Source: a virus. From it: a stretch of DNA of 64,000 nucleotides. Below the pieces are notes generated by a model, which saw only the letters and a program-made list of their open reading frames with translations, was not told the origin of the DNA and did not search any database. This document shows, one piece after another, positions 7,520 to 43,113 of the stretch. The stretch covers positions 32,001-96,000 of the IMG/VR virus record IMGVR_UViG_3300010885_044958; one strand, given 5' to 3'. Every line of letters begins with the position of its first letter. Position 1 is the stretch's first letter. The translations under genes and the position numbers were made by a program.

Positions 7520-8374
7520 TCATAAAAATCTTTGTTTAAAATCTTGGAAATTTAAAATGCGTTTGTATCCAACATCATATCTACGATTATGTAATGCATC
7601 CATCAAAAATGTGCAAATACCATTTTTATTAAGATCTACATAATTCTCCCATCTATCGTCAATAAACCAAGTAAGACCAGATGCCTTTGCAATTTCTACT
7701 TTAGATTCTCCTACACCAACTGTATAAACAGGAACACTGGGAAATCCATTCATTTGCAACCATTCTTTGGTCCATTCATTAGGTATTGATCGGCTGGTAA
7801 TATAGCAGTGGGGTTCAAATCCTAATTCTTTAGGTTCAATTTTCTTAGGTATTGTTAACCAAAATTCTTTATTATCTTTTAATAATTCAAATTTTGCGCC
7901 AATATCTTTATCAAAATTCCAAAATTCTGGAATATCTTGAGAATGATATCTAGTCCAATGTCCAAGCCAATCTGCAATTACTTCATCTATATCAAGACCT
8001 ATTTTGGGTTTCGGTAAAAATGTGTGTAGCCTATCATCTCCTTGCGGATAATATTTGTAGTAAGATATTATACCAAGACAATTCCATGCTGCATGTGCCA
8101 TGTGTAGAAGATTCGTATGATTTTTACATGTTCCCTCTTGACATTCTTTACAATTAGGATCAAAATCATAGTCTTCTCCTTTTTCAAATGCCGCAATATG
8201 CCTTTTTAAAGATGCAAGCATTTTAGACCATTCCATACCTTTAAGCCAGTTGAATGGCGCATATTTCTCAGCTCCTTTACTAAAAACTTTAACAACTTGT
8301 TCTATTGCATATGGTTCAAGTAAATCATACTTTATTTTTTCAGAATTAAATCGCAATGCCTTTTCTTCGCTCAT
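7520..8374 (-). CDS. dATP/dGTP diphosphohydrolase (DUF5664-like) fused to a HAD 5'-nucleotidase-like domain
   Basis: N-terminal GAEKYAPFNWLKG...SLKRH...HMAHAAWN; C-terminal HAD motifs LDIDEVIAD, ITSR and FIDDRWEN. Confidence 0.8.
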   Translation of the reverse strand: MSEEKALRFNSEKIKYDLLEPYAIEQVVKVFSKGAEKYAPFNWLKGMEWSKMLASLKRHIAAFEKGEDYDFDPNCKECQEGTCKNHTNLLHMAHAAWNCLGIISYYKYYPQGDDRLHTFLPKPKIGLDIDEVIADWLGHWTRYHSQDIPEFWNFDKDIGAKFELLKDNKEFWLTIPKKIEPKELGFEPHCYITSRSIPNEWTKEWLQMNGFPSVPVYTVGVGESKVEIAKASGLTWFIDDRWENYVDLNKNGICTFLMDALHNRRYDVGYKRILNFQDFKQRFL

Positions 8375-8983: not shown

Positions 8984-9985
8984 TTAACTCATTTTCACTA
9001 ATTCTAATACACGATCTCTTATTTCTTGAGTTAATTCTGGGTTATCTTGCATCATTTGTATAAAAACTGGATATTCAAATTTCTCGTCTTTATACGTAAT
9101 AGTTTTGCCCCACTTTTTTAAAATTTCTAAATCGTTTCCAATTCTTATTATCTCGCCTATTTTATCTATGCCTATGCCATATAAAATATCAAATTCACAA
9201 TTTTTAAATGGCGGCGCAACTTTATTTTTAATAACTTTTACTTTAGTAAGATTTCCAAGTATTTCATCACCATTTTTAACTGAATTATCTGATGTAGTAC
9301 TACGTCTAACATCTAATCTAACAGATGCATAGAATTTCAAGGCATTGCCTCCAGGTGTCGTTTCTGGCGAGCCGAACATTACTCCAATTTTCTCGCGTAA
9401 TTGATTAATAAATATTAGTAATGTATTAGTCTTTTTAACAGTTCCTGCAAGTTTTCTACAAGCTTGCCCCATCATTCTTGCCTGCAATCCCATTTTTTGA
9501 GTGCCCATCTCATCTTCTAGTTCAGCTTTTGGAACTAGAGCTGCAACAGAATCTATTAAAACTACATCATAAATACCCGTACTTATTAATTTTTCAGCTA
9601 CTTCAAGACCCTGCTCACCAAATTCTGGCTGATTAATATCTAATCTAGATAAATCTACGCCTAATTTTGCAGCATATTCCATATCAAATGCGTGTTCTGC
9701 ATCTACAATAGCACATAATACATCTGGATCTTTTTGAGCTTCTGCAATTGTATGTATTGCAAGTGTTGTCTTTCCTGATGATTCTGGACCATATATTTCA
9801 ATAATTCTACCTCGTGGTAACCCACCTATACCTAATGCTATATCAAGCCCAAGAGAGCCTGTAGAAATTGATTCTATGTCCATATCACCTCTATCTGACA
9901 GAGACATTACTGTACCTTTACCAAAATCTTTATCCAAAGATGTCTTCACTGCAATACGTGCCTTTGTCTTTTCCTCTAAATTCAT
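8984..9985 (-). CDS. recA: RecA recombinase
   Basis: [66 protein letters not shown]. Confidence 0.97.
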
Positions 9986-15285: not shown

Positions 15286-15714
15286 TTATTTCATTTTTGA
15301 TCTATAGTAATGGGCACGTATATTATCGTTATATGAATCTTCTCTTAATATTGCATCTTCACAAAATAAGATTTTTTCTTCAGTATAATTTAATTGCATT
15401 TTTGAAGTGCAAAAAACTAAAATTTCTTTTTTAATATTTGCTCCATTTTTAATATCTTCATTGAGTGTAGCATTGCTGCCAGTGTAATCTAACCAATTAG
15501 ACTCTTTAACAACAATTTTATTTTTTTTGCGTCTATTGTTAGTGGCTTCTTGCTCTTTAAGAGAAATTTTAGTCTTTCTATGTGTATGTAATATCTTACG
15601 CCCCCAATATTTCTTATCATTGTCTAAATTAATTATTAAGTACACGAATCCCACAGAATTTTCTGGGCATTTTGCAATATCATCCACTATCTGACCTCTA
15701 TAAATCCAACTCAT
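15286..15714 (-). CDS. GIY-YIG nuclease, T4 endonuclease II-like
   Basis: GFVYLI...KYWGRK...ESNWLDYTGS...YNDNI. Start set at MSW, just after a TATCTTTG -7 box. Confidence 0.75.
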   Translation of the reverse strand: MSWIYRGQIVDDIAKCPENSVGFVYLIINLDNDKKYWGRKILHTHRKTKISLKEQEATNNRRKKNKIVVKESNWLDYTGSNATLNEDIKNGANIKKEILVFCTSKMQLNYTEEKILFCEDAILREDSYNDNIRAHYYRSKMK

Positions 15715-15806
15715 AGGTGCAAAGATATAAAAAAAGAAAGTCTTAAACAAATATTACTTTATCTAAGACTCTCTTATCAAACAACACACTCAATCACAAA
15801 CGACTT

Positions 15807-16051: not shown

Positions 16052-17596
16052 TTAATCTCTAAACAATGCCTTTCCGTCAAATTGGAATTTATACGTGAGG
16101 TCATCTTTAAGACACCATTCAGATACTTTATCTCCATTTTCAATATCCTTAGCAAATCTATTTTTACGCTCTGTATAATACGCGATCAAATAATCTGAAA
16201 GAAACATTGCGTCTTTACTACTCTTATAATGCGTTTTATAAAAATTTAACACATCAATAAAACTAATTGTGTCTCCACATATAATCTTTTTTATGTTGTT
16301 TTCAGCAAACGCAATTACAGCACGATTCATAAACAACCAATTAACTGCTCTCTGACTATTCAAAGTTGCATCATGCAGTCTGGATTCGCAAGTACCGCTT
16401 GGAGAAAATAACATGTTGATAAAATTCCAATCATAATATCTACAACTTCTTTGCCATTTCTCCCTAATTGGATGCCTCATTTGTGTTCTATTTACTTCTT
16501 GATCCGCATGATGTCCCTCACTTAAAAACTCAAATATTCTATTATAAACCACATCTACAAATTGATCATACCCTTCTTTAGACTGATCTTTAAGTGAGTA
16601 AATAGACATTTTTTTGAGCTTTTGACAATAGTTTTTGCGTTTGATTCCACGATGATCTAGCTTATAATATGGAAACATCTTGAATATATCATCTTGAATT
16701 TGATAACATAACATATACAACGCAACCAGATAAACTCTTTCTTTAGGTAGATTTCCAAGATGAATGTGATAAGAACACCTTATATCTATTTGATTCCTCT
16801 TTTGCAATTCCTTACAAGTGTTTATTATATTCTGAATACCTTTTGCGCCTTCCATTGGAACAGTTACGTACTCAGGTCCACCTTCAAGACTACCATCTCT
16901 ACAAATTACTAGTCCAAGACGATTTTGTAAATAATCAGGCATACTGCCAACAGAAGCTTCAAACTCACACCCAAAACTTGTATTGCCTAAAAACTTTGCA
17001 TACTTTTTTGCATCATCCCCTATTTTCAGTCCATAATTCTTATACAATTCTTTCTTTTGTTCAAATTCCTTTGCATTATCTTCTATGTTATATCCTTTGT
17101 TAGTATAAGATTTGCTTGGACGAATTTTTTCCATTTGATTCTTATCGCCCTTACCAACTTCTCCTGTTTTATAAAATACATTTGCAGAAACGTCTTCAAA
17201 GAAATGCATTTTCAAAATTTCTGGATTCAGTGCAGTATAATTAGAATTTTTCCAGACAACTGGGCAATTATTGTATTCATTTTTAGTGAACCTACCTGTT
17301 ATAACATTGCCAGAAAAATCTACATCAACAATACCATTAATCATTTTCTTAGTATCCTTAATAAACCATTCTCCAGTTTCCCAATCTTTTTCTATTTTAC
17401 CAGAAGTAGTTCTATACCATTTTTGTTCAGATTCAATATAGAATATATCTGTAAAAACACTGTAATACTTGCCTTTAACAAATTTTGTATTCTTTCTATA
17501 TTCTGTTTTTCCATCGTGCGTCTCTACAACAGGAAAACCCAATGAAGGGTTCTCCGTGTAGGACTGTATTGTTGTTATTAATTTTTTTTGTATCAT
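16052..17596 (-). CDS. putative amidoligase (COOH-NH2 ligase, Amidoligase_2-like)
   Basis: FGCEFE, DGSL, EYVTVP, CSYHIHLG, RYxxWN, TCESRLH: glutamine-synthetase-fold ligase motifs. Confidence 0.8.
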   Translation of the reverse strand: MIQKKLITTIQSYTENPSLGFPVVETHDGKTEYRKNTKFVKGKYYSVFTDIFYIESEQKWYRTTSGKIEKDWETGEWFIKDTKKMINGIVDVDFSGNVITGRFTKNEYNNCPVVWKNSNYTALNPEILKMHFFEDVSANVFYKTGEVGKGDKNQMEKIRPSKSYTNKGYNIEDNAKEFEQKKELYKNYGLKIGDDAKKYAKFLGNTSFGCEFEASVGSMPDYLQNRLGLVICRDGSLEGGPEYVTVPMEGAKGIQNIINTCKELQKRNQIDIRCSYHIHLGNLPKERVYLVALYMLCYQIQDDIFKMFPYYKLDHRGIKRKNYCQKLKKMSIYSLKDQSKEGYDQFVDVVYNRIFEFLSEGHHADQEVNRTQMRHPIREKWQRSCRYYDWNFINMLFSPSGTCESRLHDATLNSQRAVNWLFMNRAVIAFAENNIKKIICGDTISFIDVLNFYKTHYKSSKDAMFLSDYLIAYYTERKNRFAKDIENGDKVSEWCLKDDLTYKFQFDGKALFRD

Positions 17597-19890
17597 ACAA
17601 CTGCTGTGTTTAATGTGCGATTGATTAATCCTGCAACCTCTTCGTCATCATTTTCTGTGGCGATATCTGCAATTTTATGCTTTATGTTATCTAAAATTTT
17701 GTACATTGCATCAGTTACTTCTTGAGCATACTTATTTGAAAGCATCCCAGACAATTCATCTACAGAATTATTTAATTCACCAAGAACTACAATCATTTCA
17801 CCAATTTTATCTCTGGCTATTGCCTCATCTATTTCTTCGTGATTTGGTTCATCTAGTTCTGGTTCATCCACTATTTCTGCATTTTCATAAACAATGATAT
17901 CTAATGGTTCTTTCTCCTCTGTTTGCAAAAGTTTTTCTTCTATTGTTGTTGTACTCGAACCTGGAGTATCTATTCCAAGCATTGATTTAATAGATTTTTT
18001 ATTCCAGTATTTATAAGGAATATCTGCAATTCTAAATCGCTTTTCCTCGTATCTTTCTAGAACATTCATTGCATCTTCTATTTCAGTTCTGATACTAGTT
18101 TGTCTTTTTACAGCATCTTCAATAGTCTTAGCAACTTCCCTATCCAGTTCTTCATTATCTGGGTCTAAAGTAGTATTTGGATCTTTAACCATACAATCAA
18201 AAACAAAATACTTTATTGCGTAGTACTGTTGCTCTTTTATTGCATTCATTGCTTCTGCTGCTGTAGTAAACACCTTATCATAAACAGAATCTCCGCCTGT
18301 TTGCAAAGTAAATTCTTCGTAAAACATTTTAGATTCATGCTTCTTATCGGATGTTTTTATGTCTTCCAAATAACCATTCTTTCCTATTGAATAATTTCTT
18401 GAAGAAAACAACGGTGTAAAGCTCTTAGACTTATATCTGTTATCGTCTAAATAAAATCCAAAACGCACATGCGCAGTCTGTCCTGTAGATTCTCCATGTA
18501 TATTTGTTACTGGATACATTGAATATTTACTAATCTGATGAGCAAAATTATGACTCATTAGATCTGGCAAAATCTTTTTATTTTTAATATCATCTTGAAG
18601 ATTATTCCATGCTTGCCCCCCTTTTAACATCACACCTCTATAAAAATAGTAAGCCTGTACATTTTGACCTTCTATATCATACCTTACACCCTTCTTATCT
18701 AACCAGAGTTTACCCATGCACAAAGCCGCGCTAGCATTCGGCATACGAAATCGCCCTTGCCAGAAATAGACCCTCCCACTTCCATCTAATGATTGATAAG
18801 GTCTTGTTTCATTCCAAATCTTTGAGCTTGAAGGTGTTACTCCCGGAATATCAAAAGGAATCATACCCTGTCCTTGTTGACCTCTTGTTATCAAATTTCT
18901 ATTTTGGCAACCTCTATTGTAATTAGGATAACACCCATCTCCATCCCAATTATAAGTATTATTATGCCCTTGATAAGTACTTACATGTACTACTTTTTCT
19001 TTACAATTAGGCCCATATAACCTCTTTACTTCGTGTTTAAATGTAGTAAATTTGCCATTTTTAATTTGCAAAACTACATTATAAGGAAAAACACAAATTT
19101 TATCATCTTTACTTGCTATTGCTCTTAAATATTCTGGAAGAGATGCAAAATACATACCTTCAGTAGTTTTCATATACCACATTGGTCTTTCTTCCCAGAC
19201 TGTATCCCCTTTATCTTCTGATTCATCTGGATGAGCATAATAACTACCGTGATAAACAAATAAACTATTTGGATCTCCTGCAAAATTCCATGCAAGTGCG
19301 GCATCTCCTTCATACTCATCCAATACTTTAAGACCTGCTTTATCTATACACATAGCAAGTCCTTCAGAATCTACTTGGTAACTACTATAAGGTATATTTG
19401 CCTCATTAGTAAGTTTTTGAATGTTACGGATGACTCCATTGTGAACGAGCCGTAAACATTTCTTAGGATCTTCATTTTCAATTGTAAATGGATGATTTGT
19501 ATCTTTTCCAGGAATTCCACCACCAGCAGCTTTACGATTATGAATCATTATTACACCACCATTATAAGTGATATTTTGCACATTATCTAAGTCTGAAATA
19601 AAGTTTTTCCAAGCCTTAGTATCTTTTTTAGTTGCGTTTGGTCCTTTCCAATCATCCCATCCTTTATATACTTCTCCGTTAATAAGCATTCCACAGCCAT
19701 CTCCACCACGATCTTGCAAATATAATCCTAAAATTTTCATTTTTTGGTAGGCAAGCATTTTTTGTGCTTCAGTAATTGCAGCTATCGGGGAAAAACAAGC
19801 CACTCCACATGGCAGTATCCCCGGAGTTCGTTTAAAGCAATTTATCAGTATAATCTGAATTATGATATAATAAAATATTATTGTTGACAT
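17593..19890 (-). CDS. class II (Ntn) glutamine amidotransferase with a long C-terminal extension
   Basis: CG (residues 28-29), QDRGGDGCG, HNRKA, NHPF, HNGVIRN, VDSE. Confidence 0.85.
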   Translation of the reverse strand: MSTIIFYYIIIQIILINCFKRTPGILPCGVACFSPIAAITEAQKMLAYQKMKILGLYLQDRGGDGCGMLINGEVYKGWDDWKGPNATKKDTKAWKNFISDLDNVQNITYNGGVIMIHNRKAAGGGIPGKDTNHPFTIENEDPKKCLRLVHNGVIRNIQKLTNEANIPYSSYQVDSEGLAMCIDKAGLKVLDEYEGDAALAWNFAGDPNSLFVYHGSYYAHPDESEDKGDTVWEERPMWYMKTTEGMYFASLPEYLRAIASKDDKICVFPYNVVLQIKNGKFTTFKHEVKRLYGPNCKEKVVHVSTYQGHNNTYNWDGDGCYPNYNRGCQNRNLITRGQQGQGMIPFDIPGVTPSSSKIWNETRPYQSLDGSGRVYFWQGRFRMPNASAALCMGKLWLDKKGVRYDIEGQNVQAYYFYRGVMLKGGQAWNNLQDDIKNKKILPDLMSHNFAHQISKYSMYPVTNIHGESTGQTAHVRFGFYLDDNRYKSKSFTPLFSSRNYSIGKNGYLEDIKTSDKKHESKMFYEEFTLQTGGDSVYDKVFTTAAEAMNAIKEQQYYAIKYFVFDCMVKDPNTTLDPDNEELDREVAKTIEDAVKRQTSIRTEIEDAMNVLERYEEKRFRIADIPYKYWNKKSIKSMLGIDTPGSSTTTIEEKLLQTEEKEPLDIIVYENAEIVDEPELDEPNHEEIDEAIARDKIGEMIVVLGELNNSVDELSGMLSNKYAQEVTDAMYKILDNIKHKIADIATENDDEEVAGLINRTLNTAVV

Positions 19891-19912
19891 GTGTTTGTTT
19901 GTTGTTTTGTTT

Positions 19913-19946
19913 AAAAATCGGGCTAGAATTATTAGTTCTAGCCCGT
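19913..19946 (-). terminator. intrinsic terminator inside the amidoligase cluster
   Basis: CGGGCTAGAA/TTCTAGCCCG stem, followed by a T-run on the - strand. Confidence 0.65.
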
Positions 19947-19956
19947 TGTTAATAAA

Positions 19957-20865
19957 TTATTGTTTTACTTGTTCTTTATAGATACCGAGTTGCCTAGCTT
20001 TTTGTCGAGCTATTATTGGTAACTGATCTATATACCTCTGTGCTGTTATAGATCCGTAGCTTGGAGCACTACAAGATTCTATTACGATAAAATCTGGTGC
20101 CTCTCTTTGCTTACCTTTACCGTTTAATTCAGACTGTACTCGCAAATCTATTGCACCTACATCAAGACCTACAGATTTGATTGCTTTTACACATTCTTCT
20201 ACTATAGAATTCCAATTAGATGGTTTTTCAAATGTCTCATTATTTTCCAAAATCCAAACGCAATTATCATCATGCTTTTGAAATTTTTCATTTTCAGGCG
20301 TTCCATTTTTCAACATCTTACGACAAGTATAAAAACATGTACCGTTTACAGCATCAATATGTAACCTATATTCCCTTGAATAAGACATATAGTGTTCTAT
20401 AATATAATTACTCATATCATGTCCGGCTATAAATCTGTTTAATTCTTCTGATGTTTTTATAAATGAATTACCTTCGCCTCTAGACCCAAACAAACTTTTT
20501 ACAATAAGTGGGAATTTTAAATCCTCTATTTTTGCCGTTTTATCTGAACCAGAAACATGAAATAATGAATCTTTATATGTATACCAAGGTGCGGTTTTTA
20601 TTCCTGTCTGTGCAAAACATTTTTTCATCAATAATTTGCTAGAACTATTTTGCACACCTTTTATTTCATTTATTTCAATCATCTTTCCACCACGACTTAC
20701 AGCTTCTTCTGCGATTGTGGTACTACCTAACCTAACCACACATTTAAATGGCATACGAGGCAATTCTGTACGTAATACAGCATGTGAGGGATGACGTGAG
20801 AATACATGAAACTTATGACTTGTAGTTATTACCTTAGGCTGCAACTTCTTCTTTAGAGTATTCAT
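19957..20865 (-). CDS. ATP-grasp peptide/amine ligase (RimK/YheCD-like)
   Basis: SSKLLMK, FPLIVKSLFGSRGEG, EYRLH, GLDVGAIDL, IESCSAPS. Confidence 0.85.
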   Translation of the reverse strand: MNTLKKKLQPKVITTSHKFHVFSRHPSHAVLRTELPRMPFKCVVRLGSTTIAEEAVSRGGKMIEINEIKGVQNSSSKLLMKKCFAQTGIKTAPWYTYKDSLFHVSGSDKTAKIEDLKFPLIVKSLFGSRGEGNSFIKTSEELNRFIAGHDMSNYIIEHYMSYSREYRLHIDAVNGTCFYTCRKMLKNGTPENEKFQKHDDNCVWILENNETFEKPSNWNSIVEECVKAIKSVGLDVGAIDLRVQSELNGKGKQREAPDFIVIESCSAPSYGSITAQRYIDQLPIIARQKARQLGIYKEQVKQ

Positions 20866-21397
20866 ATATTTGTTTTAGATGTAAATAATTTAATCCGTCT
20901 GTTAATACTTCTAGTCTTGGTGTACCATTTTGTGTTCCATTATCATCATAATGTGATATTGCCGAACTAAAATATTTATTTTCTTTATCGTAGTCTTTTC
21001 TATTATCATAGTACCAAACCCTAGCTTCAATTTGTGGGCATTGCAAACTATAAATTTCTAAATTTTCATTCAATTCTACTAAAATACAAATACATTCTAA
21101 CAGAGTAAGACTTGGATAATAGTAATTAGCTAACAAAAACAAATCATGTGTTGATCTATTTTTATGCCCACGACATTGCATTATATTTTTTTCTTTTTCT
21201 TCGGCAGTTTCATCTACCCAAATACAATTATGTTCATATTCTTTATTCCATTTATTCAAAAACCAATTTAAAAATGATTTTGCATCCGGCAATTCATTAT
21301 AATCTAGTTCTTCATTCATTTTAAATCTGCGTTCTTGCAAATAATTTTTTTCGTTAGATGCAATTATTTCTAATATTTCTTGATCTTTTAGTTCCAT
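20834..21397 (-). CDS. hypothetical protein within the amidoligase cluster
   Basis: ORF track. Confidence 0.6.
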   Translation of the reverse strand: MELKDQEILEIIASNEKNYLQERRFKMNEELDYNELPDAKSFLNWFLNKWNKEYEHNCIWVDETAEEKEKNIMQCRGHKNRSTHDLFLLANYYYPSLTLLECICILVELNENLEIYSLQCPQIEARVWYYDNRKDYDKENKYFSSAISHYDDNGTQNGTPRLEVLTDGLNYLHLKQIYEYSKEEVAA

Positions 21398-21400
21398 ATA

Positions 21401-22033
21401 TTATAGTTTATCTTCCATTAATTTTTTTAACAAATCTTGGCAATACTTTACTGGTTCTGATTCTACTTGCATAGCCTCTGGGTGCCATTGCGTTCCTAAA
21501 AACTGAGTCTTAGAGAAAAATAGAATTTCTGGTTCAATTGGCACATTCATTTGCTTACCTTCACCATCATCATGATGATTTGATAAATTATCTGCTGCAC
21601 CTATGATTCGATATTCATCTTCTGGCAAATTAAACGGATAACACATTTGGTGATGCATTGAGTTCACAGAAAATACTTTACCATCTTCTGTTTTAATTGT
21701 ATGCCTCCCTGGATGAGAAATATCTTGTATTAATTTTCCACCAGAAACTGCGCAACCATACTGAATTCCTTTGCATGTACCCCACAACTTTTTTCCAAGA
21801 CCTATCGCAGTTCTAATATCAGCAAGTTCTTCATCATGTTCCATTCTAGTAAATCCCCAACTAGCAGAATGCCTCTTTTCTTCGCCATAAATTCTTGTGT
21901 CGATATCGCTACCTCCATTTACAAAGACCAAATCAGCTTCTTCTACAGAATGTACTATTTCTCTATTTGGAACCCAGTTAGAATAACCAGAACCTCTTTT
22001 ACCTGCGTGATATACTTTTATCTTTTTTTGCAT
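21401..22033 (-). CDS. class I glutamine amidotransferase / gamma-glutamyl hydrolase (PuuD, peptidase C26-like)
   Basis: GGSDI, GTCKGIQ (nucleophile Cys), VNSMHHQ, QWHPE (His-Glu). Confidence 0.88.
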   Translation of the reverse strand: MQKKIKVYHAGKRGSGYSNWVPNREIVHSVEEADLVFVNGGSDIDTRIYGEEKRHSASWGFTRMEHDEELADIRTAIGLGKKLWGTCKGIQYGCAVSGGKLIQDISHPGRHTIKTEDGKVFSVNSMHHQMCYPFNLPEDEYRIIGAADNLSNHHDDGEGKQMNVPIEPEILFFSKTQFLGTQWHPEAMQVESEPVKYCQDLLKKLMEDKL

Positions 22034-22038
22034 AATTT

Positions 22039-22863
22039 TTATTTTGGCATTTTAATTTTAAATTTTTCTATCCAATTCTTTGCAGATTCCAAGTCATTAT
22101 TATTTATTATTGCTTGAATATCATCTCCAAAGTTTTCTATTTCATATATGCGTCCTGCATTTACAAATTTTATTGCTTCTTCTGTTTGTTTAAAACACCA
22201 TTCTATTAGAGTCTTGGAGGATGCAAAATAGCCTGACAATACGCGATATTCTGCACCCCAAGGCTGTTGCCTCCAGTTACCAGCACAACCATATCCAGAT
22301 GTTCTCCTTTCATTTTCAGGCTCTAGAAACAGGCTAGGAATGCCTACAAATACATCCATAGCTTTCATTAATTCTATGTTTGTTTCTTTATTTGGAGATT
22401 CATAGCCAATATGCAAATGTGTCCCATTAACACGAAGACTATCACCATTTGGTACAGGATGTATTTCATCCATTGTCCAACAATTTAAGCTACTTTCGCA
22501 ACCGAAAGTATTTGCTGTTTCTGATTGTAATTGATCTTCATCTAATCTTGCACAGGCTGCAATTTCTATTTGTAAATTTTCTGGTAAAATACTATCTATA
22601 TATCTAAGAGCTTTCTGTACATTTAGATAAAATTGCCCGGCAGTTTTTGCAGGTTCAAGACCGAATTCTGCGCTGACACAATCTAAACTAGTAGCAAAGA
22701 ATTTACTACTCTCATCAAATTTGTGCGGATTTTTCTTTGTGCCCTTTATAATTCCTTCAGCAGTAACAACCTTATCTGAGATCTTATCTTTTAAAAAAAC
22801 CTCAATGTCTGAGCCTACTAACCAGTCAACAACCTTCTGTTTTTTTGCTTTTGCTATTGTCAT
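22039..22863 (-). CDS. phiEco32-like COOH-NH2 ligase type 2
   Basis: VGSDIEVFL, GTKKNP, SAEF, FGCE, LRVNGTHLHIGY, RRxxxYGxAG, GAEYRVLS. Confidence 0.85.
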   Translation of the reverse strand: MTIAKAKKQKVVDWLVGSDIEVFLKDKISDKVVTAEGIIKGTKKNPHKFDESSKFFATSLDCVSAEFGLEPAKTAGQFYLNVQKALRYIDSILPENLQIEIAACARLDEDQLQSETANTFGCESSLNCWTMDEIHPVPNGDSLRVNGTHLHIGYESPNKETNIELMKAMDVFVGIPSLFLEPENERRTSGYGCAGNWRQQPWGAEYRVLSGYFASSKTLIEWCFKQTEEAIKFVNAGRIYEIENFGDDIQAIINNNDLESAKNWIEKFKIKMPK

Positions 22864-24032
22864 TTTGCATTTTTTAAAAAATTATACAACCCTTCATAAT
22901 CTTTATTTGTTATAAATGTTTTGCATTTTGGTATATCATTAATTCTATCTGGTAGATATTCAAATGATTCCCACATCTTATGCTTTGTTCTTATGTTGTT
23001 TACTATTACTTTTGGATCTGCAAAACAATTTAAAAGTCCTTTTGTTTGATAACCCATATGTACCAAACCTCTTTCTGTTAGATAATTCGGACCTAAATGT
23101 GCCATCATTAATGCTTCCCAATTAGATACTTTATCTTCTAAAGCATCTTTTATTTGCATTGCTAAAGCTGGAATATACCAGTGATTATTATGGTGCAAAT
23201 ATCTGAGTAACATCAAATGCAAATGACAATGCCATTCGTCTGCGTGATTTTTTACTTTAATTTCGACAAATGTTGATTTGCCTCCTGGAAAAATAGTGTA
23301 ATTGCTTGAATTTAAAACAAAATCTCTATCTTTTTCTGCAGGTGTTAATAATTTCTCGTAACATTTTGGAATTGCGCATTCACCTTCTAAAATATACTTA
23401 AATTCTATTTGGCAATTCTCTAAAAACTGCAACCACTTATGCACATCATAAATAGAATAGCCATAATAATTTAAATAGTAAGTAGGTAAATAATAAACAA
23501 AATCCATTTTTGTCTTGATATAATCACAACAATCTGCTTTAAAGCCAATTTGACCTCTACAAGCTTCACTTGCTAAATCTTCTTTAATTTGTCCAGTTTT
23601 AAAATCTATTGTGCATTTAGCTGTATAAACATACAATGTAATTGCCGATAAATTATTTTTTAGAATTCGTATATTCTTATTACAATCTATCTGAGAATAA
23701 TTTCCAGTAGAAGGTTTTCTAAATAGTTCTTCTGTGTCTAAAATATGTTTAAATGCTTCTTTTTCATATGCTGCTGCAATTTCTTCATATTTTTTAAAAT
23801 CTTTTTCTGCAATTTCTTCTAGATCTGCTTGTTGAAAAATATATCTTTTTGTATTTCCTGCACTAAAATAATTTACATAAAGTTGCCAAGCATCAGGTCT
23901 TGTATAGCCTTTGCTTGCAGTTTCTGAAGAAATGACTCCATACACACTATGTTTTTGTAAATTTTGCATTTCATTATTCAAACTGGTATACTTGTGGGGA
24001 TTCTTTATTAATACTCTGCTTCCAATTTGCAT
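22860..24032 (-). CDS. hypothetical protein within the amidoligase cluster, with an N-terminal SH3/KOW-like segment
   Basis: 390 aa; overlaps both neighbours; His-rich C-terminal part. Confidence 0.6.
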   Translation of the reverse strand: MQIGSRVLIKNPHKYTSLNNEMQNLQKHSVYGVISSETASKGYTRPDAWQLYVNYFSAGNTKRYIFQQADLEEIAEKDFKKYEEIAAAYEKEAFKHILDTEELFRKPSTGNYSQIDCNKNIRILKNNLSAITLYVYTAKCTIDFKTGQIKEDLASEACRGQIGFKADCCDYIKTKMDFVYYLPTYYLNYYGYSIYDVHKWLQFLENCQIEFKYILEGECAIPKCYEKLLTPAEKDRDFVLNSSNYTIFPGGKSTFVEIKVKNHADEWHCHLHLMLLRYLHHNNHWYIPALAMQIKDALEDKVSNWEALMMAHLGPNYLTERGLVHMGYQTKGLLNCFADPKVIVNNIRTKHKMWESFEYLPDRINDIPKCKTFITNKDYEGLYNFLKNAK

Positions 24033-24457
24033 TTTGTGTCCAGTTTATGTGATTTTCTAATAAATTTTCTTTTACGATAATCGCCTGATTCAATTAGTTG
24101 TTCTTTAGCCCCAACAAAATCTGGTTGCCAAAATATAAATGCATTTCCAAATTCAGTTTCTATTAATTTTGCTTGGCCTCCACAAATATATTTTAAGAGA
24201 TTTTGCAAAACTGCATTTTGAGTAATTTTATATACTTCACAATGAATTGCAGAACTTCCCTTACCTAGTATACATGTATACCCTAAATTATACATTGTAA
24301 ATATAGGTTCTGTTAATATATTTCCTAGATATTCCGATTTATACTCAAGTAAAATTTTATTTTTAACTGATCCTTTTAATAAAGATCCCGAAACCAATAT
24401 TGTGATTTCGGGAGTAGTTTTATCTATCTTTAAATTTTTATTTAAATTTGTCTCCAT
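24008..24457 (-). CDS. gamma-glutamyl cyclotransferase (GGCT/AIG2-like), divergent
   Basis: LVSGSLLKG (cf. VYGSL), MYNLGY, IHCEVYKI, IESGDY. Confidence 0.65.
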   Translation of the reverse strand: METNLNKNLKIDKTTPEITILVSGSLLKGSVKNKILLEYKSEYLGNILTEPIFTMYNLGYTCILGKGSSAIHCEVYKITQNAVLQNLLKYICGGQAKLIETEFGNAFIFWQPDFVGAKEQLIESGDYRKRKFIRKSHKLDTKCKLEAEY

Positions 24458-25166
24458 TTATATATTGTTTTATTAAATTTATAATTAATTCTTCTGGCCA
24501 ATCAAGCTTTAAACTATTCCACCACCAGCAAACTATTCTACAATTATCTTGAGTATATCCTTTGCTATTATCAATTCTATCTATTGATGGAAGTAACGGA
24601 TTTGATTTGTATGCTTCTTTAGATGGAGATATTATTAAATCAAATCCTGTAGCTTCACATTTTAGTAAGGAAATTTGTGTAAGAAACCATTCTTTTGTTA
24701 AATTAAATTCAAGATTTCTTTTTTTAGCTGAATTTTTAGTAGAGCAAAATAGTTTATTTGCAAATCCGGTAAATGTTAAAAAATGCTCTTTTCTAGATCT
24801 TCTTTCGTGCATTTTTTCTGGATTGTTATGATAGTATTCTTTTGATTTATTTCGATGTGTTTCCATTACATCAGGCCTCTGACGGTATATTTGCATATAC
24901 TTATCTTCGCATTCAATGCATTTTGATCTATAGCCTATCTTAACTTTTGGATTTTTATAAAAACAATCTGTTGTTTTTGTTTCTTTACATAAATCACAAA
25001 CTTTATATCCGGTTTCAATTAATTTCATAGCTCTTCTGTACTTTCCAACAGCAGCATTTCTACACTTCTTACACTGGTTTATATAACCATCTTTAATACA
25101 TTTTGAACGAAAAAAGTGTGAGATATCTTTTTCTTCTTTACATACATGGCATATCTTTTTTTCCAT
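24438..25166 (-). CDS. HNH-type homing endonuclease with two zinc-finger repeats
   Basis: Tandem CxxC...CxxC repeats; PSIDRIDNSKGYTQDNCRIVC..N..K; own promoter at 25201-25233. Confidence 0.8.
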   Translation of the reverse strand: MEKKICHVCKEEKDISHFFRSKCIKDGYINQCKKCRNAAVGKYRRAMKLIETGYKVCDLCKETKTTDCFYKNPKVKIGYRSKCIECEDKYMQIYRQRPDVMETHRNKSKEYYHNNPEKMHERRSRKEHFLTFTGFANKLFCSTKNSAKKRNLEFNLTKEWFLTQISLLKCEATGFDLIISPSKEAYKSNPLLPSIDRIDNSKGYTQDNCRIVCWWWNSLKLDWPEELIINLIKQYINGDKFK

Positions 25167-25399: not shown

Positions 25400-25618
25400 T
25401 TAATCTTTGGCAATATTACCATCTACTAATTCACTAAAACTAGGAGTTCCAATTTGTATTCTATTTTGCTTGTACCACAAGTTGTCGATATCCAAATGCT
25501 TTATTCTGAAGTTTTGGCGTGAAATAATTTTTAACTGCTCGGCAATTATTATATTTTTATCTTCTATTAATTGTTTCAGATCATTTATTGTTTGTTCTAA
25601 TATTTCTATATCTGTCAT
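25400..25618 (-). CDS. hypothetical coiled-coil protein
   Basis: ORF track; ATGA-coupled to the primase. Confidence 0.55.
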   Translation of the reverse strand: MTDIEILEQTINDLKQLIEDKNIIIAEQLKIISRQNFRIKHLDIDNLWYKQNRIQIGTPSFSELVDGNIAKD

Positions 25619-26643
25619 AAAAATCCTTTATTATGTAATTGATTTTCTAATTCTTCTCTACCAAAATGTGACGTAATATCATAGCTATCTTCCAAACTAT
25701 ATTTTTCATAGTCTGATTTTGCTGTATTAAAATATTCTAATCCATAAGTTTTAGTTAATTCAGTACAAACACCAACAGCATGTGGGTCAGATCCAAGGCA
25801 AACTATAATTCTCTTATATTTTGATTGCAAATCTTTTATAATTTTTTCTGGCAAAGCCGCAACTGATTCGTTTTGAAGCCAAATTTGATCTGAAAAGTAG
25901 CGCATACAAGTAAGCCAGTCTTTCTTAGATTTTTGTACAAACAATCTATCATCTTTTTGTGGTAATGTATCCAAATTTCCTGGGCAATTCAATGGTACAC
26001 TACTTAAGAATTTCATTTTCTTATCTTGTGGGCAATAAATTTTTACACGTTTTTGCCATTTACCATTTATTTCACAATTAACTACATATGCGTATCTATG
26101 AAAATTATTTGGATTAAATATTTGTTGATTGTTAATATATAATTCTTTTACATAAAATACATCTCCTGCATTATTTAATTCATCTATTGTTATTTCACCA
26201 CGCCTAAAAAACAATGAGTTTTTCTTAGACCATTGTTCTGCAGAAAATTGTATCACAGTCTGCTTAGAGATTTCTTTATCTAAACTTTCTAATTCTTTAT
26301 AAAAACTTGCTGGTATTTTAGATTGCCTTCCAATAATTCCAAAATCTTCTGCAACAATGCGCAAACAATTTGCAAAATCACATCCGCATTTCTTTTTTAC
26401 TACTTGCCAACAATTTAGAATTTCAGAAGTCCTAAAGTCTTTATATAGAAGAGTTCCATTAGTATGTATAAATACTCCTGCACTTGCTAATTCATCTTTT
26501 CTAAACGGACTATTAAATGCCTTACCTATTTTAAATCGACCTAAGTAGAACAACATTATCTGAGTTTGATCTATCTTAGATAGGATATACTCCGGAGTCA
26601 ATCTAATCGGACTTCGTACTTTTGAAAAATCTAATTCTTGCAT
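25615..26643 (-). CDS. DNA primase (crAss-like, degenerate zinc-binding domain plus TOPRIM)
   Basis: SPFRKD...LYKDF N-terminus; KSKKD, QNES and ED TOPRIM-like motifs; located in the replication module. Confidence 0.75.
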   Translation of the reverse strand: MQELDFSKVRSPIRLTPEYILSKIDQTQIMLFYLGRFKIGKAFNSPFRKDELASAGVFIHTNGTLLYKDFRTSEILNCWQVVKKKCGCDFANCLRIVAEDFGIIGRQSKIPASFYKELESLDKEISKQTVIQFSAEQWSKKNSLFFRRGEITIDELNNAGDVFYVKELYINNQQIFNPNNFHRYAYVVNCEINGKWQKRVKIYCPQDKKMKFLSSVPLNCPGNLDTLPQKDDRLFVQKSKKDWLTCMRYFSDQIWLQNESVAALPEKIIKDLQSKYKRIIVCLGSDPHAVGVCTELTKTYGLEYFNTAKSDYEKYSLEDSYDITSHFGREELENQLHNKGFL

Positions 26644-27942: not shown

Positions 27943-28698
27943 CTACACAGCTTCTTTTTTAGCTTTTACTTTAATTGGTTCTTCTGATTTGCCTTCACAG
28001 TCTCCTGAATAGTAGCAAGCAATTGCTTTATTTACTAATTCAAGATCATTATCAATGTATTCATCTGGGAATAAATCAATTGGTGATTTCGCTGTTGATG
28101 ACATATCTCTAGTTTTAAACTTATAGACGATATTGTTATCTCCATCTTGCATTTTACAAGCTAAAAGTACAATTTCAAATTGTGCCTCAACAGAAGCTAA
28201 TTTTTCTTGTATCATTTTGCCAGAACTCATTGCTCTCTTTACTTTTTCCTCGATCACACCATCCCCGACACTATCGGCATGAAAAAGAAAATACACATTT
28301 AGGTCTTCTCTTAAAGTATTTGCAACTTCTGCTAAATGTAAAAAATCATGGGCAATGTCACTGTACTTATTGTAACCAGGTTCTTCCCTGCGCCGATCCA
28401 GCTCCTTTATTGAAAAAAATGTCGAATCGTCCAGGCATATAGTCCTAACATGTGGCATTTTATCACTAATATGTCTCAACCACTGACTCACAGCTTTGGC
28501 TGACGAGCTTATTATTAAATTACCTGTTGGATTTGATTCACGATTCCAGACAGTATAATTTATACGACTTTTTGGGAATGGAAGACCTTTCCCTAAACTT
28601 GAGAAAATCATAGTCGTCTTAGGATCTAGATTTCTCATACTTGTGCTTTTACCAACACCACTTTCTCCAATAATTAATATTCCTTTAGATGTATTCAT
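27943..28698 (-). CDS. AAA_24/Sak4-like ATPase
   Basis: GESGVGKSTS Walker A, ICLDD Walker B, FLFH, TAKSP. Confidence 0.85.
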   Translation of the reverse strand: MNTSKGILIIGESGVGKSTSMRNLDPKTTMIFSSLGKGLPFPKSRINYTVWNRESNPTGNLIISSSAKAVSQWLRHISDKMPHVRTICLDDSTFFSIKELDRRREEPGYNKYSDIAHDFLHLAEVANTLREDLNVYFLFHADSVGDGVIEEKVKRAMSSGKMIQEKLASVEAQFEIVLLACKMQDGDNNIVYKFKTRDMSSTAKSPIDLFPDEYIDNDLELVNKAIACYYSGDCEGKSEEPIKVKAKKEAV

Positions 28699-29212: not shown

Positions 29213-30280
29213 CTAAAATATTGATTTTTGTGCTCCATACTTAGCTATCTTGTTTTTCTCTTCGGTTATAATCTGTAAATAAATCTTTTCTAAAGCTTCT
29301 TTATCATCTGCTTTTGGTAATTCCTGAAAAATTTCATGTCTACCATCAAAAAGCATTCCTAATCTAGGCGCAATTTCCTCTTCATTTGTTTTTAGATTTA
29401 TTAAAGATTTAAACCTACCTCTAAGAATATCTATATTATAGTCTCCTGAATGAGGATATTCTTTTATCTCGAACCTGTTAGGGTCAAAAAGTCCAAATAC
29501 ATGGTGCATTGATCTAGCTACAACTTTTGCATCTGCCACAGAACTAAGATTAGGTTCAATATTTATAAGACTTCCTTTACCTGCGTTTCTAAAAGTATTT
29601 TTTTCAGAATCTGCGTCTACTTGTAAAACAGTTATTGTTGTAATACCTACTTTACAAAATTTAAGTCGTATAATATCTCTACTTAATCTTTTTATTGCAG
29701 CCCATTCAGTTGCATCCTGCTCGTTCTGAGTGACGTTTGACTGATTATCAATTAGGACCACGATGTGGAAATCTTTGCCCAGCTCTTTATAAGTTTCTGC
29801 TACTTTTTTATAAATCTGGTCTGGGGAAGATAAATCGTTAGTTATTTCTACTATAGACTCTAAATGTTCGTAGAATTTTTCATCTTTCTTTAATGCGTCC
29901 AAAAATTTTTCAGGTAAAGGCAACTCCCTACTATTTAATACTTTAGGACTAATAGATAATTTATGACGTGTAAAAAGATAGTGGCTCATTATTTTTTTCA
30001 TAACTGGGATCTCTGGGTCTTCTAGGGCAAAATACAAAATTTTACAAGGATAATCATTCTCCATTATAAAATCTAACATATTATACATCCAATATCGCAT
30101 TAATCTTGACTTGCCCGAACCTGTCATACCCAAGAGTCCTATGTATTCTCCAGGATTAAAGCCATCAAAATAATTTGAATATCTAGGAAATCCACTTAGG
30201 GGTATTCCGTTAAACCCACCACTTTCTCGTATTGCCTTTTTCTTTAATAAATCTTCTAAGGTTTTATCATACCACCCCAA
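29213..30280 (-). CDS. DnaB-like (SF4) replicative helicase
   Basis: GMTGSGKS, YFALED, VLIDN, VLQ. Confidence 0.8.
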   Translation of the reverse strand: MGWYDKTLEDLLKKKAIRESGGFNGIPLSGFPRYSNYFDGFNPGEYIGLLGMTGSGKSRLMRYWMYNMLDFIMENDYPCKILYFALEDPEIPVMKKIMSHYLFTRHKLSISPKVLNSRELPLPEKFLDALKKDEKFYEHLESIVEITNDLSSPDQIYKKVAETYKELGKDFHIVVLIDNQSNVTQNEQDATEWAAIKRLSRDIIRLKFCKVGITTITVLQVDADSEKNTFRNAGKGSLINIEPNLSSVADAKVVARSMHHVFGLFDPNRFEIKEYPHSGDYNIDILRGRFKSLINLKTNEEEIAPRLGMLFDGRHEIFQELPKADDKEALEKIYLQIITEEKNKIAKYGAQKSIF

Positions 30281-32118: not shown

Positions 32119-34062
32119 CTAGAATAAAGAAAGCTGCATTTGTGGTGCTTGCATTTCCTGAATAATTTTTCTAGTAGACGCAATATAGTGTGAATAATCT
32201 ATATCATACTCTGCCCAAGATTTTTCTTCGTAATTATTAAATAGTAATACTGGATTTCCTACATTAATATGTTCAAATGTTGCATTTGTCTTATATTTTT
32301 TTGCAGTACTTTTTTTCTTTTTTAATAAATATGCAGCAGGTCTTGAGAAATAGTACCTATTAAGATTTTGCACAATCTGATTGTCATAATATACTGAATA
32401 ATCTTTACTTATTTTCTTAGAACAAGTATAATGATATATTCCCAGATCAAATCTATCTGGATTAGAAATTGTTTCTTCTATTGGAATGCCTTTTGTAAAA
32501 AAATTATTTAGAGCCTGCGCAATTACATTTTCATTAACAGAATCACCAAGAGGTATTTCATCTTTACCTTCTTCATCTTTAAGCAACTTAAACAAACCTT
32601 TTCTTTTAGCTTTATCTTTTTCTGTCAGAGCAATATAATTATTTACATTTTTGTAGTAGATAAATTTATATTTCTCATGTTCAAATTCAAGATTAAATTG
32701 CTTTTCTATTTCCTTAAAAGATTCTTGATATTTATGTACTTCTTTCGTAGGTACAATTGCTTCAATTCCATCTGTATTTACTGAGACTACCTGCCAATTA
32801 TTTAAAATACATAGCTCAACAGCTTTAGTTAGCACTAACTGCCCTATAAGTCTTAAACGTAAGGCTCCTTCTGGATAATAGAGCCAACTATGCCCTTGAT
32901 CTAATAACCCGCTTACACCATTCAGAATTAGCTTAAAAAAGGTATCCTTGGTTTTCTGTCTAGCTTTCTTTGCTATAATTCTTTCATCTTTAATAGAAGT
33001 ATATCTTTGCAAAACTTCTGGAAATCTAATGCATCTGTAATTAATTATAAGATTTGGATATAGCGATGCGACATCCGAAGTCATTATCTTATATTCAGAA
33101 TTACTATCATACATCTCATTTTCATTAACAGAATGTAATCCACCTATTCCATAAGACAATCTTATACTAGTATTGTTTTCTATTACTGGCAATTCTTCAT
33201 AAAATTCATTTACTGAATTCATTATTCTTTCAAATAATTTCTGAAAAACTGGTAATTTAAAATTAGGATTGAAATCACTTAAAATATCTTTTACTAATAT
33301 TGTAGGTTTTTCAAATCTAGTATAACGCATTTCTCTAGCAAACAAATCTGGTGTTAATCCTTGAGATTCATCTTTATCACATTTTTCTTTACAATAATCT
33401 TGTAAAAGAGATTCAGAAGCTATTTTTATTGCATCGTAAGACATGCATTGAATACCCGTTTCTTTCCAAATATTCTTTCTTAAAGTGATTTCGTCTTTTC
33501 TTTTTTCTGCCAGCGCATCTAAAATTCCTAGATCATGTACATTATTATATTCTCTAACTTGTCTTATTTGATCTAAAGTAAGAACTGTAGATGGATTATA
33601 GGGCAACTCCATCACTACAGGATAATTCAATTGAATTCCAAGACCTTTTAAACTAATTTTTTTAGAGATGCGCAACATTTTTGCCCAGAATAAATATAAA
33701 TCTATTGAAATCCAATCTGTTTTAAAATAAACATAAGGTTTCAAACAATCCCTATTTAAATCTGTGTCGATTACTTTGTCAGAAAAACTTTTTATCTTTT
33801 GCAATAAATCATCTTTCTTTAGATTTTTTAGTTTTGTCCAATCTTTTAGAAAATATTTTATCACAACTTCATCGTAATGTATTCCATTAAACGAAATCAA
33901 AAACCCTTTAAATTTACTAAAGAAGTCATAAATCTTTTGTCTATCATCAAATTCTTCTGATATCTCTAAATTTACAACTTCTTTAGTTTTAAAGTCTTTA
34001 AACCCACATATAAAAAGATTTCCAAAAACTTCTAAATCAAATTCTTTTACTTCATTACTCAT
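32119..34062 (-). CDS. polB: family B DNA polymerase
   Basis: ExoI FDLE, ExoII FNGIHYD, ExoIII YNNVHD; motif A DVASLYPN, motif B KLILNGVSG, motif C NTDGI. Confidence 0.92.
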   Translation of the reverse strand: MSNEVKEFDLEVFGNLFICGFKDFKTKEVVNLEISEEFDDRQKIYDFFSKFKGFLISFNGIHYDEVVIKYFLKDWTKLKNLKKDDLLQKIKSFSDKVIDTDLNRDCLKPYVYFKTDWISIDLYLFWAKMLRISKKISLKGLGIQLNYPVVMELPYNPSTVLTLDQIRQVREYNNVHDLGILDALAEKRKDEITLRKNIWKETGIQCMSYDAIKIASESLLQDYCKEKCDKDESQGLTPDLFAREMRYTRFEKPTILVKDILSDFNPNFKLPVFQKLFERIMNSVNEFYEELPVIENNTSIRLSYGIGGLHSVNENEMYDSNSEYKIMTSDVASLYPNLIINYRCIRFPEVLQRYTSIKDERIIAKKARQKTKDTFFKLILNGVSGLLDQGHSWLYYPEGALRLRLIGQLVLTKAVELCILNNWQVVSVNTDGIEAIVPTKEVHKYQESFKEIEKQFNLEFEHEKYKFIYYKNVNNYIALTEKDKAKRKGLFKLLKDEEGKDEIPLGDSVNENVIAQALNNFFTKGIPIEETISNPDRFDLGIYHYTCSKKISKDYSVYYDNQIVQNLNRYYFSRPAAYLLKKKKSTAKKYKTNATFEHINVGNPVLLFNNYEEKSWAEYDIDYSHYIASTRKIIQEMQAPQMQLSLF

Positions 34063-41077: not shown

Positions 41078-41221
41078 AAAATATAAAAACCCTCGAATTA
41101 GGTGCAGCCTCTCATTGGGTAATGAAAGTCCTAAAACGAGGGAATAATTAGATATTAGTAATCCCAAAGAGAAGCTGCTAATAAAATATAAGCAATTTTT
41201 CTGAGACTACCAAATCTAGTT

Positions 41222-43042: not shown

Positions 43043-43113
43043 TACCTCTGGCAGGTAACGGGCCTGCGCACTCCAAATTAGAAGTTTGGTGCTCTTCACT
43101 GAGCTACAGAGGC
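43043..43113 (-). tRNA. tRNA-Arg(UCU), non-canonical D- and T-loops
   Basis: Full cloverleaf: GCCTCTG/CAGAGGT, GCTC/GAGC, CCAAA-CTTCTAA-TTTGG, GCAGG-CCCGTTA-CCTGC; CCA not encoded. Confidence 0.8.

Follow-up and report, generated by a model that had tools for sequence, protein, structure and literature searches.

The window analysed here is a 64,000-nt stretch of viral DNA, bases 32001–96000 of the 134,236-bp IMG/VR record IMGVR_UViG_3300010885_044958, which CheckV rates as 73% complete. Between nt 16052 and 24457 it carries eight consecutive open reading frames (ORFs) on the minus strand, tightly packed and with all frames open, here called g1 to g8 in the direction in which they are read. 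G1 (24008–24457, 149 residues) is a divergent gamma-glutamyl(amine) cyclotransferase of the GGACT/AIG2-like type, and g2 (22860–24032, 390 residues) belongs to an unnamed family. G3 (22039–22863, 274 residues) is a type 2 COOH-NH2 ligase, that is, a carboxylate-amine ligase of the glutamine synthetase (GS)/GCS2 fold. G4 (21401–22033, 210 residues) is a Peptidase_C26 or class-I glutamine amidotransferase-like protein similar to PuuD. G5 (20834–21397, 187 residues), again of an unnamed family, is a putative ATP-grasp partner domain, and g6 (19957–20865, 302 residues) is a RimK-like ATP-grasp ligase. G7 (17593–19890, 765 residues) is a class-II, N-terminal nucleophile (Ntn) glutamine amidotransferase with an additional C-terminal part, and g8 (16052–17596, 514 residues) is a GS-like Amidoligase_2 protein with an N-terminal extension. 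The spacings between neighbours from g1 to g8 are −25, −4, +5, +3, −32, +66 and −4 nt. A first-pass annotation of this DNA had listed these eight genes in this order and had noted their likeness to the phiEco32-type gene set. The inventory was borne out by the ORFs and by Pfam and PHROGs searches, and the likeness by the same families in the annotated region of phiEco32.

We identify the cluster, with high confidence, as a crAss-lineage variant of the phiEco32-type phage amidoligase cassette. Five core families exceed their Pfam cut-offs, the same families occur in phiEco32, Ab22, cr108_1 and Lbo-JY46, and the genes are inherited together on one strand beside replication genes, as in phiEco32, the LUZ24-like phages and cr108_1. 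The cassette is real, intact and strongly conserved, and it belongs to a kind already known, though unsolved, rather than being a new system. What sets the variant apart is its class-I amidotransferase, an Ntn enzyme with a leader, and two partner families specific to the lineage. The phiEco32-type cassette was reportedly predicted computationally by Iyer, Abhiman, Burroughs and Aravind in 2009, and the phiEco32 set is the namesake of Pfam PF14395. The literature found on the cassette consists of genome-annotation mentions, in which no experimental product or phenotype was found, and the first-pass statement that the product is not established stands. PMC10580990 cites Iyer et al. for the proposal that the cassette serves to modify the cell wall and to exclude superinfecting phages.

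The phage that carries the cluster is a distant crAss-like phage from freshwater metagenomes. Its TerL, portal, helicase, Sak4, primase and exonuclease are 22–28% identical to those of the crAss phage cr108_1. Seven public sequencing runs, all labelled freshwater metagenomes, hold this DNA, and no RNA run is among the holders listed. A near-identity DNA search of the cluster against deposited phages gave no match.

G3 matches PF14395 (COOH-NH2_lig) with 36.3 bits against a cut-off of 25, and phrog_3815 with an E value of 1.1e-50 over residues 14–272. Residues D19, E21, E66, H149, H151, R186, E205 and R207 are invariant in an alignment of eight lineages. A tblastn search of deposited phages with g3 returned 243 records, 229 of which cover at least 80% of the query. 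Among the carriers are phiEco32-like coliphages, LUZ24-like phages of Pseudomonas, phages of Vibrio and Aeromonas, cr108_1 (38% identity) and Lbo-JY46 (41%). A sequence search of g3 against PDB gave chance-level rows only.

Interrupted and joined forms of these genes were seen in some of the related viral loci. In L006, L007 and L008 (11747–12957) the COOH-NH2 ligase gene is broken after about residue 207 by about 1.2 kb with a 306-residue ORF, and in L012 (5898–6121) the class-I amidotransferase gene is split by about 220 bp; introns or homing-endonuclease insertions are possible explanations. In L049 (9293–10780) one stop-to-stop frame contains both a GGACT-like part (residues 14–117) and a COOH-NH2 ligase (residues 232–492), which is either a fusion or two genes without an intervening stop.

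G8 matches PF12224 (Amidoligase_2) with 33.1 bits (cut-off 22) at residues 240–427 of 514. E211, E213, D234-G-S, E242, H277, H279, E404 and R406, which include the E-x-E, H-x-H and E-x-R positions, are kept in seven lineages. The N-terminal extension of about 200 residues is common to crAss-like phages and Lbo-JY46, and is absent in phiEco32 and Ab22. Searched in the ESM Atlas, this part of g8 found low-TM (template modelling score) viral amidoligase clusters only, and g8 found nothing in PDB by sequence. A separate ORF of about 73 residues, similar to residues 13–81 of the extension, lies just before g5 in L006 (14169–14390) and L009 (14721–14945). These stand-alone ORFs suggest that the extension may be a mobile independent domain.

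G7, which overlaps g8 by 4 nt, matches PF13522 (GATase_6) with 37.3 bits (cut-off 27) at residues 107–212 of 765. Its Ntn domain comprises residues 28 to about 300, with C28-G29, R61, H117, R119, N151-G152 and D174 invariant. The remaining C-terminal part of about 460 residues belongs to no known family. It is common to Lbo-JY46 (E 4e-20) and partly to cr108_1, and no match to it was found in phiEco32 or Ab22. A word-index search with the C-terminus found one homologue, the ESM Atlas gave no usable match for this part, and g7 has no relative in PDB by sequence.

Codons 1–27 of g7 (19810–19890, minus strand) encode a leader of 27 mostly hydrophobic residues, with basic residues after the hydrophobic stretch and then Cys28. 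The most hydrophobic 17-residue stretch has a Kyte-Doolittle mean of 2.2. Of the 59 non-duplicate homologues in which a Cys-Gly could be recognised (six without the motif and nine duplicates were excluded), 22 carry a leader of 22–33 residues with best means of 1.5–2.7, and 37 start with Met-Cys-Gly. The codon before Cys28 is for Pro, so no alternative start codon can expose Cys28. Since an Ntn enzyme requires a free N-terminal nucleophile, the leader would have to be removed; we infer from the sequence that it is removed by self-cleavage. The positive charges after the hydrophobic helix suggest a cytoplasmic catalytic domain that is held at the membrane until cleavage. In the literature consulted on the cassette, no description was found of a leader ahead of the catalytic Cys in its Ntn amidotransferase.

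The other amidotransferase, g4, matches PF07722 (Peptidase_C26) with 46.5 bits (cut-off 20.5) and phrog_7218 with 4.6e-21. The nucleophile elbow at Cys87 and the His193-Pro-Glu195 residues are present. A faint match to the NCBIfam gamma-glutamyl-CDP-amidate hydrolase (E 9e-4) lies far below the cut-off.

G6 passes two Pfam cut-offs marginally, PF02222 (ATP-grasp) with 27.1 bits against 27 and PF08443 (RimK) with 21.4 against 21, and matches phrog_2599 with 4.5e-25. It is 39% identical to the cr108_1 enzyme and 42% to that of Lbo-JY46. E165, R167, D240 and E263 do not vary, and 39 of the 40 sequences have K123. In the E-x-N metal motif, Cys takes the place of Asn here and in eight others (9/40). 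These belong to several sublineages, which speaks for a tolerated variant.

G5 and g6 share 32 nt. Pfam, PHROGs and NCBIfam contain no family that matches g5; a word-index search found two relatives, and a hidden Markov model (HMM) of the family detected it in 15 of 80 viral loci. S82 and C120 are invariant and R81 and D85 nearly so, within a signature of Cys, basic-x-Arg-Ser-x-x-Asp, Tyr-Phe-Pro and Cys. In two distinct phages g5 and the ATP-grasp ligase form a single frame, with g5 as the N-terminal part (L015 and L016, which are one sequence on two contigs, and L021). We read g5 as a likely partner domain of the ATP-grasp enzyme.

G2 is predicted to contain an SH3/KOW/Tudor-like barrel in residues 1–75 and an alpha/beta domain in residues 100 to 390 or so. 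C168 and R277 are invariant, and C169 is nearly so. No family in Pfam, PHROGs or NCBIfam matches g2, and a Pfam search with 87 members of the g2 family gave no credible family, with three single-member matches at E 0.005–0.007. When 1.84 billion representatives were searched with a g2 profile, 131 clusters matched at E ≤ 1e-3, of which 63 reached 1e-30 or better; the members are mostly 350–440 residues long. Against PDB the family has no sequence relative, only chance-level rows. No match was found by tblastn in deposited phages or by a single-protein scan of viral contigs. The pattern scan for g2 used a 9-sequence alignment, the 87-sequence alignment being too diverse.

The structural model of g2 places the protein further. 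With the whole model, Foldseek and VIA gave matches to the N-terminal barrel only. The model of the C-terminal domain alone found nothing above noise among PDB structures, and four matches among viral models (E 8e-4 to 1.7e-3, probability 0.99–1.00, TM 0.41–0.51). All four are from crAss-like phages, and the next match has E 0.22. Two of the four are cr108_1 proteins of 300 and 329 residues (E 1.1–1.2e-3, TM 0.44–0.51). They correspond to gp030 and gp029, the only annotated coding sequences of those lengths in NC_055878.1, which form a paralogous "hypothetical" pair within the cr108_1 cassette. An hhalign comparison of the g2 family with the g3 family and with gp029 and gp030 gave no signal, and no link between g2 and the partner proteins of phiEco32 or LUZ24 was demonstrable. 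On the evidence of the models, g2 is a probable crAss-lineage cassette component, present here as a single copy with a reader-like barrel and in cr108_1 as a duplicated form without the barrel. The first-pass annotation had left g2 and g5 as unknowns. That neither belongs to a known family holds, and the description can be refined to a putative ATP-grasp partner domain for g5 and a probable crAss-lineage cassette protein for g2.

G1 matches phrog_2520 with 7.1e-5 and is 32% identical to the annotated gamma-glutamyl cyclotransferase (GGCT) of Lbo-JY46 (E 1.35e-8). All six syntenic or cassette orthologues of g1 that were tested exceed the GGACT cut-off, and the acidic catalytic position, E74 in g1, is E or D in seven of seven aligned sequences. 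The loss of catalytic residues that the first-pass annotation had considered was not found: they are kept in g3, g4, g7 and g8, and g6 and g1 carry one change each.

Conservation of the gene set was examined in viral loci collected by an IMG/VR pattern scan with the eight-lineage g3 alignment. The scan found 469 relatives, and the best 80 loci were fetched. Gene presence was called by family HMMs at E ≤ 1e-4. Full 10-kb flanks are available for 36 of the 80 loci, and many of the other 44 are truncated by contig ends. G3 is present in 80/80 loci and in 36/36 full-flank loci, both by construction. G7 was found in 74/80 and 36/36, g6 in 74/80 and 35/36, and g8 in 70/80 and 36/36. Of the 36 full-flank loci, 35 have the four core genes together, always on one strand; over all 80 loci the four are found in 65. 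G4 is present in 65 loci (34 with full flanks), g1 in 40 (17), g5 in 15 (8) and g2 in 7 (1). In the full-flank loci g4, g6, g7 and g8 lie without exception on the same strand as g3. Grouping of the cassette genes is far beyond chance, and the co-conservation on which the first-pass reading depended is confirmed. Where both genes are present, g7 and g8 are adjacent in 63/68 loci, g4 and g3 in 42/65, and g2 and g3 in 7/7. Order and content are kept across related phages at 25–66% protein identity.

A scan of one genome per species in 185,579 prokaryote species (alignment A9) found nine loci, all on contigs of metagenome-assembled genomes. Four of these contigs have all four core genes, and five are short or cut and have g3 alone or part of the set. 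A single-protein query of prokaryote genomes found none. With 469 viral relatives against nine such contigs, the cassette is close to virus-only.

In phiEco32 the cassette (phi32_77 to phi32_88) includes the COOH-NH2 ligase gp86, the amidoligase gp84, the Ntn amidotransferase gp83, the ATP-grasp enzyme gp80 and the GGCT gp77, and ends at the primase/helicase gp75; Ab22 agrees with it in set and order. The present cluster shares with phiEco32 the type 2 COOH-NH2 ligase, Amidoligase_2, Ntn class-II amidotransferase, RimK-like ATP-grasp and, with g1 as a divergent form below the family cut-off, GGACT-like proteins, and the location on one strand beside the primase/helicase. However, the genes are arranged in another order. 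No class-I/C26 amidotransferase is detectable in phiEco32: gp85, like Ab22 ORF22, does not align as C26. The phiEco32 amidoligase has a C-terminal extension and lacks the N-terminal extension of g8, and its Ntn enzyme starts directly at Cys, unlike the leader-bearing g7. BLAST and HMM comparisons of phiEco32 gp85, gp87 and gp88 with the cluster genes revealed no similarity to any of them. HMMs of the cassette families likewise found nothing significant among the "hypothetical" partners in phiEco32, Ab22, cr108_1 and Lbo-JY46. The partner proteins of phiEco32 are replaced here by g2, g5 and g4, so the cluster is a variant rather than an orthologous copy.

The cassette of cr108_1 (Crassvirales, Steigviridae; NC_055878.1 gp028–gp034) occupies the same place, between primase and exonuclease genes; in the annotated region it lies between primase and uracil-DNA glycosylase. 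Five of the eight genes have homologues there by BLAST, namely g3 (38% identity), g4 (33%), g6 (39%), g7 (28%) and g8 (27%). It differs in that the ATP-grasp gene comes first and that two paralogous g2-like proteins lack the SH3-like N-terminal domain. The Ntn enzyme is shorter (492 residues) and has no leader, and neither GGACT nor g5 was detected in cr108_1 by BLAST or HMM.

Leptolyngbya phage Lbo-JY46 (PP438436.1) is the closest cultured relative, with 41% identity in g3, 42% in g6 and 39% in g8. By BLAST it has six of the eight genes, namely g1, g3, g4, g6, g7 with its C-terminal part and g8 with its N-terminal extension. It differs in having three C26 paralogues and a 536-residue ATP-grasp enzyme, and in lacking g2 and g5. 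The Lbo-JY46 cassette (L002, 3766–16524) directly follows genes for PncB (nicotinate phosphoribosyltransferase), a paralogous unknown pair and PrsA (phosphoribosyl pyrophosphate synthetase).

In the mechanism that we propose, the cassette would be a virus-restricted operon carried with the DNA-replication genes, its enzymes seemingly intact. It would hold two glutaminase-ligase modules, g7 with g8 and g4 with g3, in which carboxylates are activated by ATP and then amidated with glutamine-derived ammonia or joined to amines. We consider such a paired architecture reasonably probable. G6 with its partner domain g5 would add an amino acid, most likely glutamate, and g1, possibly together with g4, would remove gamma-glutamyl groups. 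G7 would be a pro-enzyme, perhaps anchored on the inner membrane face by its hydrophobic leader until the leader is cut off to free Cys28. G2 might serve as a lineage-specific adaptor, or as a fourth, degenerate ligase-like subunit, working with g3. The first-pass annotation had suggested that the cluster could write and erase gamma-glutamyl or isopeptide linkages, for example for superinfection exclusion or anti-defence; this chemistry and these purposes are hypotheses.

For the acceptor, we tentatively favour a peptide-type molecule, either a host or phage protein or a cell-wall precursor peptide, over a free small metabolite or DNA. This preference is based on the RimK-like ATP-grasp enzyme, the GGACT-type cyclotransferase and the predicted SH3/Tudor-like barrel of g2. 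The membrane-type leader on a third of the Ntn enzymes further directs attention to the membrane face. The lineage-variable parts, namely the g7 C-terminus, the N- or C-terminal extensions of g8 and the partner proteins g2/g5 and gp87/88, lie outside the catalytic cores. Constant cores with surroundings exchanged between lineages suit host-specific targeting, and hence a peptide-type acceptor.

Known enzymes offer parallels to a peptide-type acceptor. MurT/GatD and AsnB1/LtsA carry out glutamine-dependent amidation of peptidoglycan precursors, and Ddl and Asl(fm) perform ATP-grasp additions. Amidation of peptidoglycan precursors follows the same logic, a glutaminase and an ATP-dependent ligase amidating a peptide carboxylate at the inner membrane face, and amino-acid addition by Ddl and Asl(fm) is a further likeness in working logic. 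MurT is, however, a Mur-ligase and not of the GS fold. These enzymes have no sequence relationship with the cassette, and the comparison is one of analogy only. The Pup ligase PafA, the deamidase Dop and the glutamate-cysteine ligases (GCL) are comparison systems among carboxylate-amine ligases of the GS/GCL fold.

A more specific version of the peptide-type reading, which we regard as improbable, is a virus-only system for marking proteins. During the phase of replication, the GS-fold ligases and the RimK-like enzyme would attach glutamate-type groups to selected proteins of host or phage, or amidate acidic groups of these proteins, and the GGACT-like and C26 enzymes would erase the marks. 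The g2 family, with an SH3/Tudor-like reader and a degenerate PafA/GCL-like domain, and the g5 family would pick the targets, and the Ntn enzyme would be activated by self-cleavage of its membrane-type leader. If true, phages would have their own counterpart of pupylation or polyglutamylation.

Several points weigh against the proposed mechanism and its peptide-type acceptor. No small tag-like ORF was found inside the cassette. G4 and g3 are adjacent in only 42/65 loci, and phiEco32 and the LUZ24-like phages have no detectable g4; the second module is therefore not universal. G1 scores 18.8 bits with Pfam GGACT, below the cut-off of 22.8, and its YGSL motif reads SGSL, with Ser replacing Tyr. 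The Cys that replaces the metal-binding Asn of g6 could weaken or change the activity. The g7 leader may be a plain pro-peptide without a role at the membrane. The constant place of the cassette beside primase/helicase is a fact for which a peptide target gives no explanation.

The foremost alternative is a cytoplasmic small-molecule pathway, in which the ligases gamma-glutamylate or acylate a free amine or amino acid, such as a polyamine or a glutathione-like peptide. The amidotransferases would amidate or hydrolyse intermediates, and the cyclotransferase would take off a gamma-glutamyl protecting group, releasing a product that serves phage metabolism, DNA packaging or counter-defence. Every catalytic family present here has members that act on small molecules, as in PuuA/PuuD, GshA/GshB, EgtA/EgtC and BtrJ/BtrG. 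In the PuuA/PuuD, glutathione and butirosin pathways, enzymes of these families act on free amines and amino acids, and a small-molecule product consequently fits the catalytic inventory as well as a peptide does. The closeness of g4 to Peptidase_C26, its faint hydrolase match far below cut-off and the missing tag-like ORF or obvious protein substrate point the same way, as does the position of the Lbo-JY46 cassette next to the metabolic genes for PncB and PrsA. However, that neighbourhood occurs in one phage only. A universal small substrate also leaves unexplained why the non-catalytic domains and the partner proteins change from lineage to lineage, and why an SH3/Tudor-like domain and a membrane-type leader are present. 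We judge the small-molecule pathway possible but rather doubtful.

The place beside primase/helicase, which recurs in four unrelated lineages, speaks for a modification of DNA or nucleotides, in which, for example, a carboxyl- or hydroxymethyl-bearing pyrimidine is amidated or aminoacylated to protect the DNA from host nucleases. According to Lee et al. (PMC8989533), amidoligase and amidotransferase genes are co-associated with thymidine-hypermodification genes in some viral contigs. The same phage also encodes a dATP/dGTP diphosphohydrolase-type protein at 7520–8374, 8 kb from the cassette. On the other hand, a thymidine-hypermodification cluster of the 5-HMUDK/aGPT-Pplase type would be expected to have a supply of 5-hydroxymethyl pyrimidine, and a DNA kinase and glycosylase-like transferases close to its amidoligases. 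PF00303 (thymidylate synthase/hydroxymethylase), PF00709 (PurZ-type) and PF01702 (DpdA/TGT) are absent from the 134-kb, 73%-complete record. The eight cassette and 22 neighbouring window proteins scanned gave no match to a DNA-kinase, glycosylase-like or dioxygenase family; for the DNA-kinase and glycosylase-like transferase families no accession search was made across the whole record, and the Tet_JBP search lacked a working control. We consider modification of DNA or nucleotides very unlikely.

That the cluster is a decaying or partly inactive remnant kept only by linkage, as the sub-threshold g1 without the Tyr of YGSL, the Cys in g6 and the insertions in g3 and g4 of relatives might suggest, is extremely unlikely in view of eight open and tightly coupled frames, the otherwise invariant catalytic residues and the conservation of order and content across divergent phages.

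With 243 deposited phage genomes and 469 IMG/VR relatives, counted by g3 alone, the cassette ranks with the most widespread enzyme sets of phages that lack a known product. Its carriers include therapy-relevant Pseudomonas phages and gut crAss-like phages, and an answer would probably uncover a new means by which phages reshape the cell that they infect. What this window adds is concrete handles for experiments rather than a solution of the cassette function. New here are the g7-g8 adjacency, the fusion of g5 to the ATP-grasp ligase, the predicted SH3-like barrel of g2, the fold that g2 appears to have in common with cr108_1 proteins and the hydrophobic leader before the catalytic Cys.

Data on expression come from another branch of the cassette. 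Work on the LUZ24-like phage PaP3 gives ORF40 as the primase/helicase, and ORFs 32–48 as peaking at 10–30 min. In that work, the cassette-embedded genes p44 and p47 are in the middle class together with ORF40. In the present cluster, a terminator-like hairpin was found by consensus scan at 19919–19945 on the minus strand, with a 10-bp stem containing six G-C pairs followed by a T run. It lies in the 66-nt gap between g6 and g7, the sole sizeable gap of the cluster. The putative hairpin may divide the genes between two separate transcripts, or may be a regulatory or processing site. The same scan gave 11 terminator-like sites in 12.5 kb, against 3.9 ± 2.0 in shuffled sequences.

Upstream, g1 is overlapped by 20 nt by an HNH/endonuclease VII-like gene (24438–25166, minus strand; phrog_3322 6.6e-28, phrog_1035 3.5e-27). 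A DNA primase gene follows at 25615–26643 on the minus strand (phrog_12622, 9e-25), and farther upstream lie genes for a Sak4-like protein (27943–28698; phrog_2872, 4.3e-48) and a DnaB-like helicase (29213–30280; phrog_19, 1e-11). The order of primase, Sak4-like protein and helicase is unchanged in seven related loci and in cr108_1. The downstream neighbour (15286–15750, minus strand, 154 residues) is a SegE-like GIY-YIG homing endonuclease (PF19835, 5.9e-24). The phrog_447 label for this ORF, NAD synthetase, looks misleading given the SegE-type Pfam match and was rejected. An exonuclease VIII-like gene also lies downstream of the cassette.

Other features of the record were noted. It contains three giant ORFs of 2165–2985 residues. 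A dATP/dGTP diphosphohydrolase-type domain (PF18909, 7.9e-26) forms the N-terminal part of the 284-residue protein at 7520–8374 on the minus strand, a match that hints at editing of the purine deoxynucleoside triphosphate pool. The same arm encodes a bacterial-type RecA (1.5e-118; window 8984–9985), an RNA ligase with a PHA02142 OB-fold domain (35474–36568) and two more GIY-YIG endonucleases (34059–34850 and 40274–41167). ORFs of at least 100 residues are sparse at window positions of about 42500–50000 compared with the rest of the arm.

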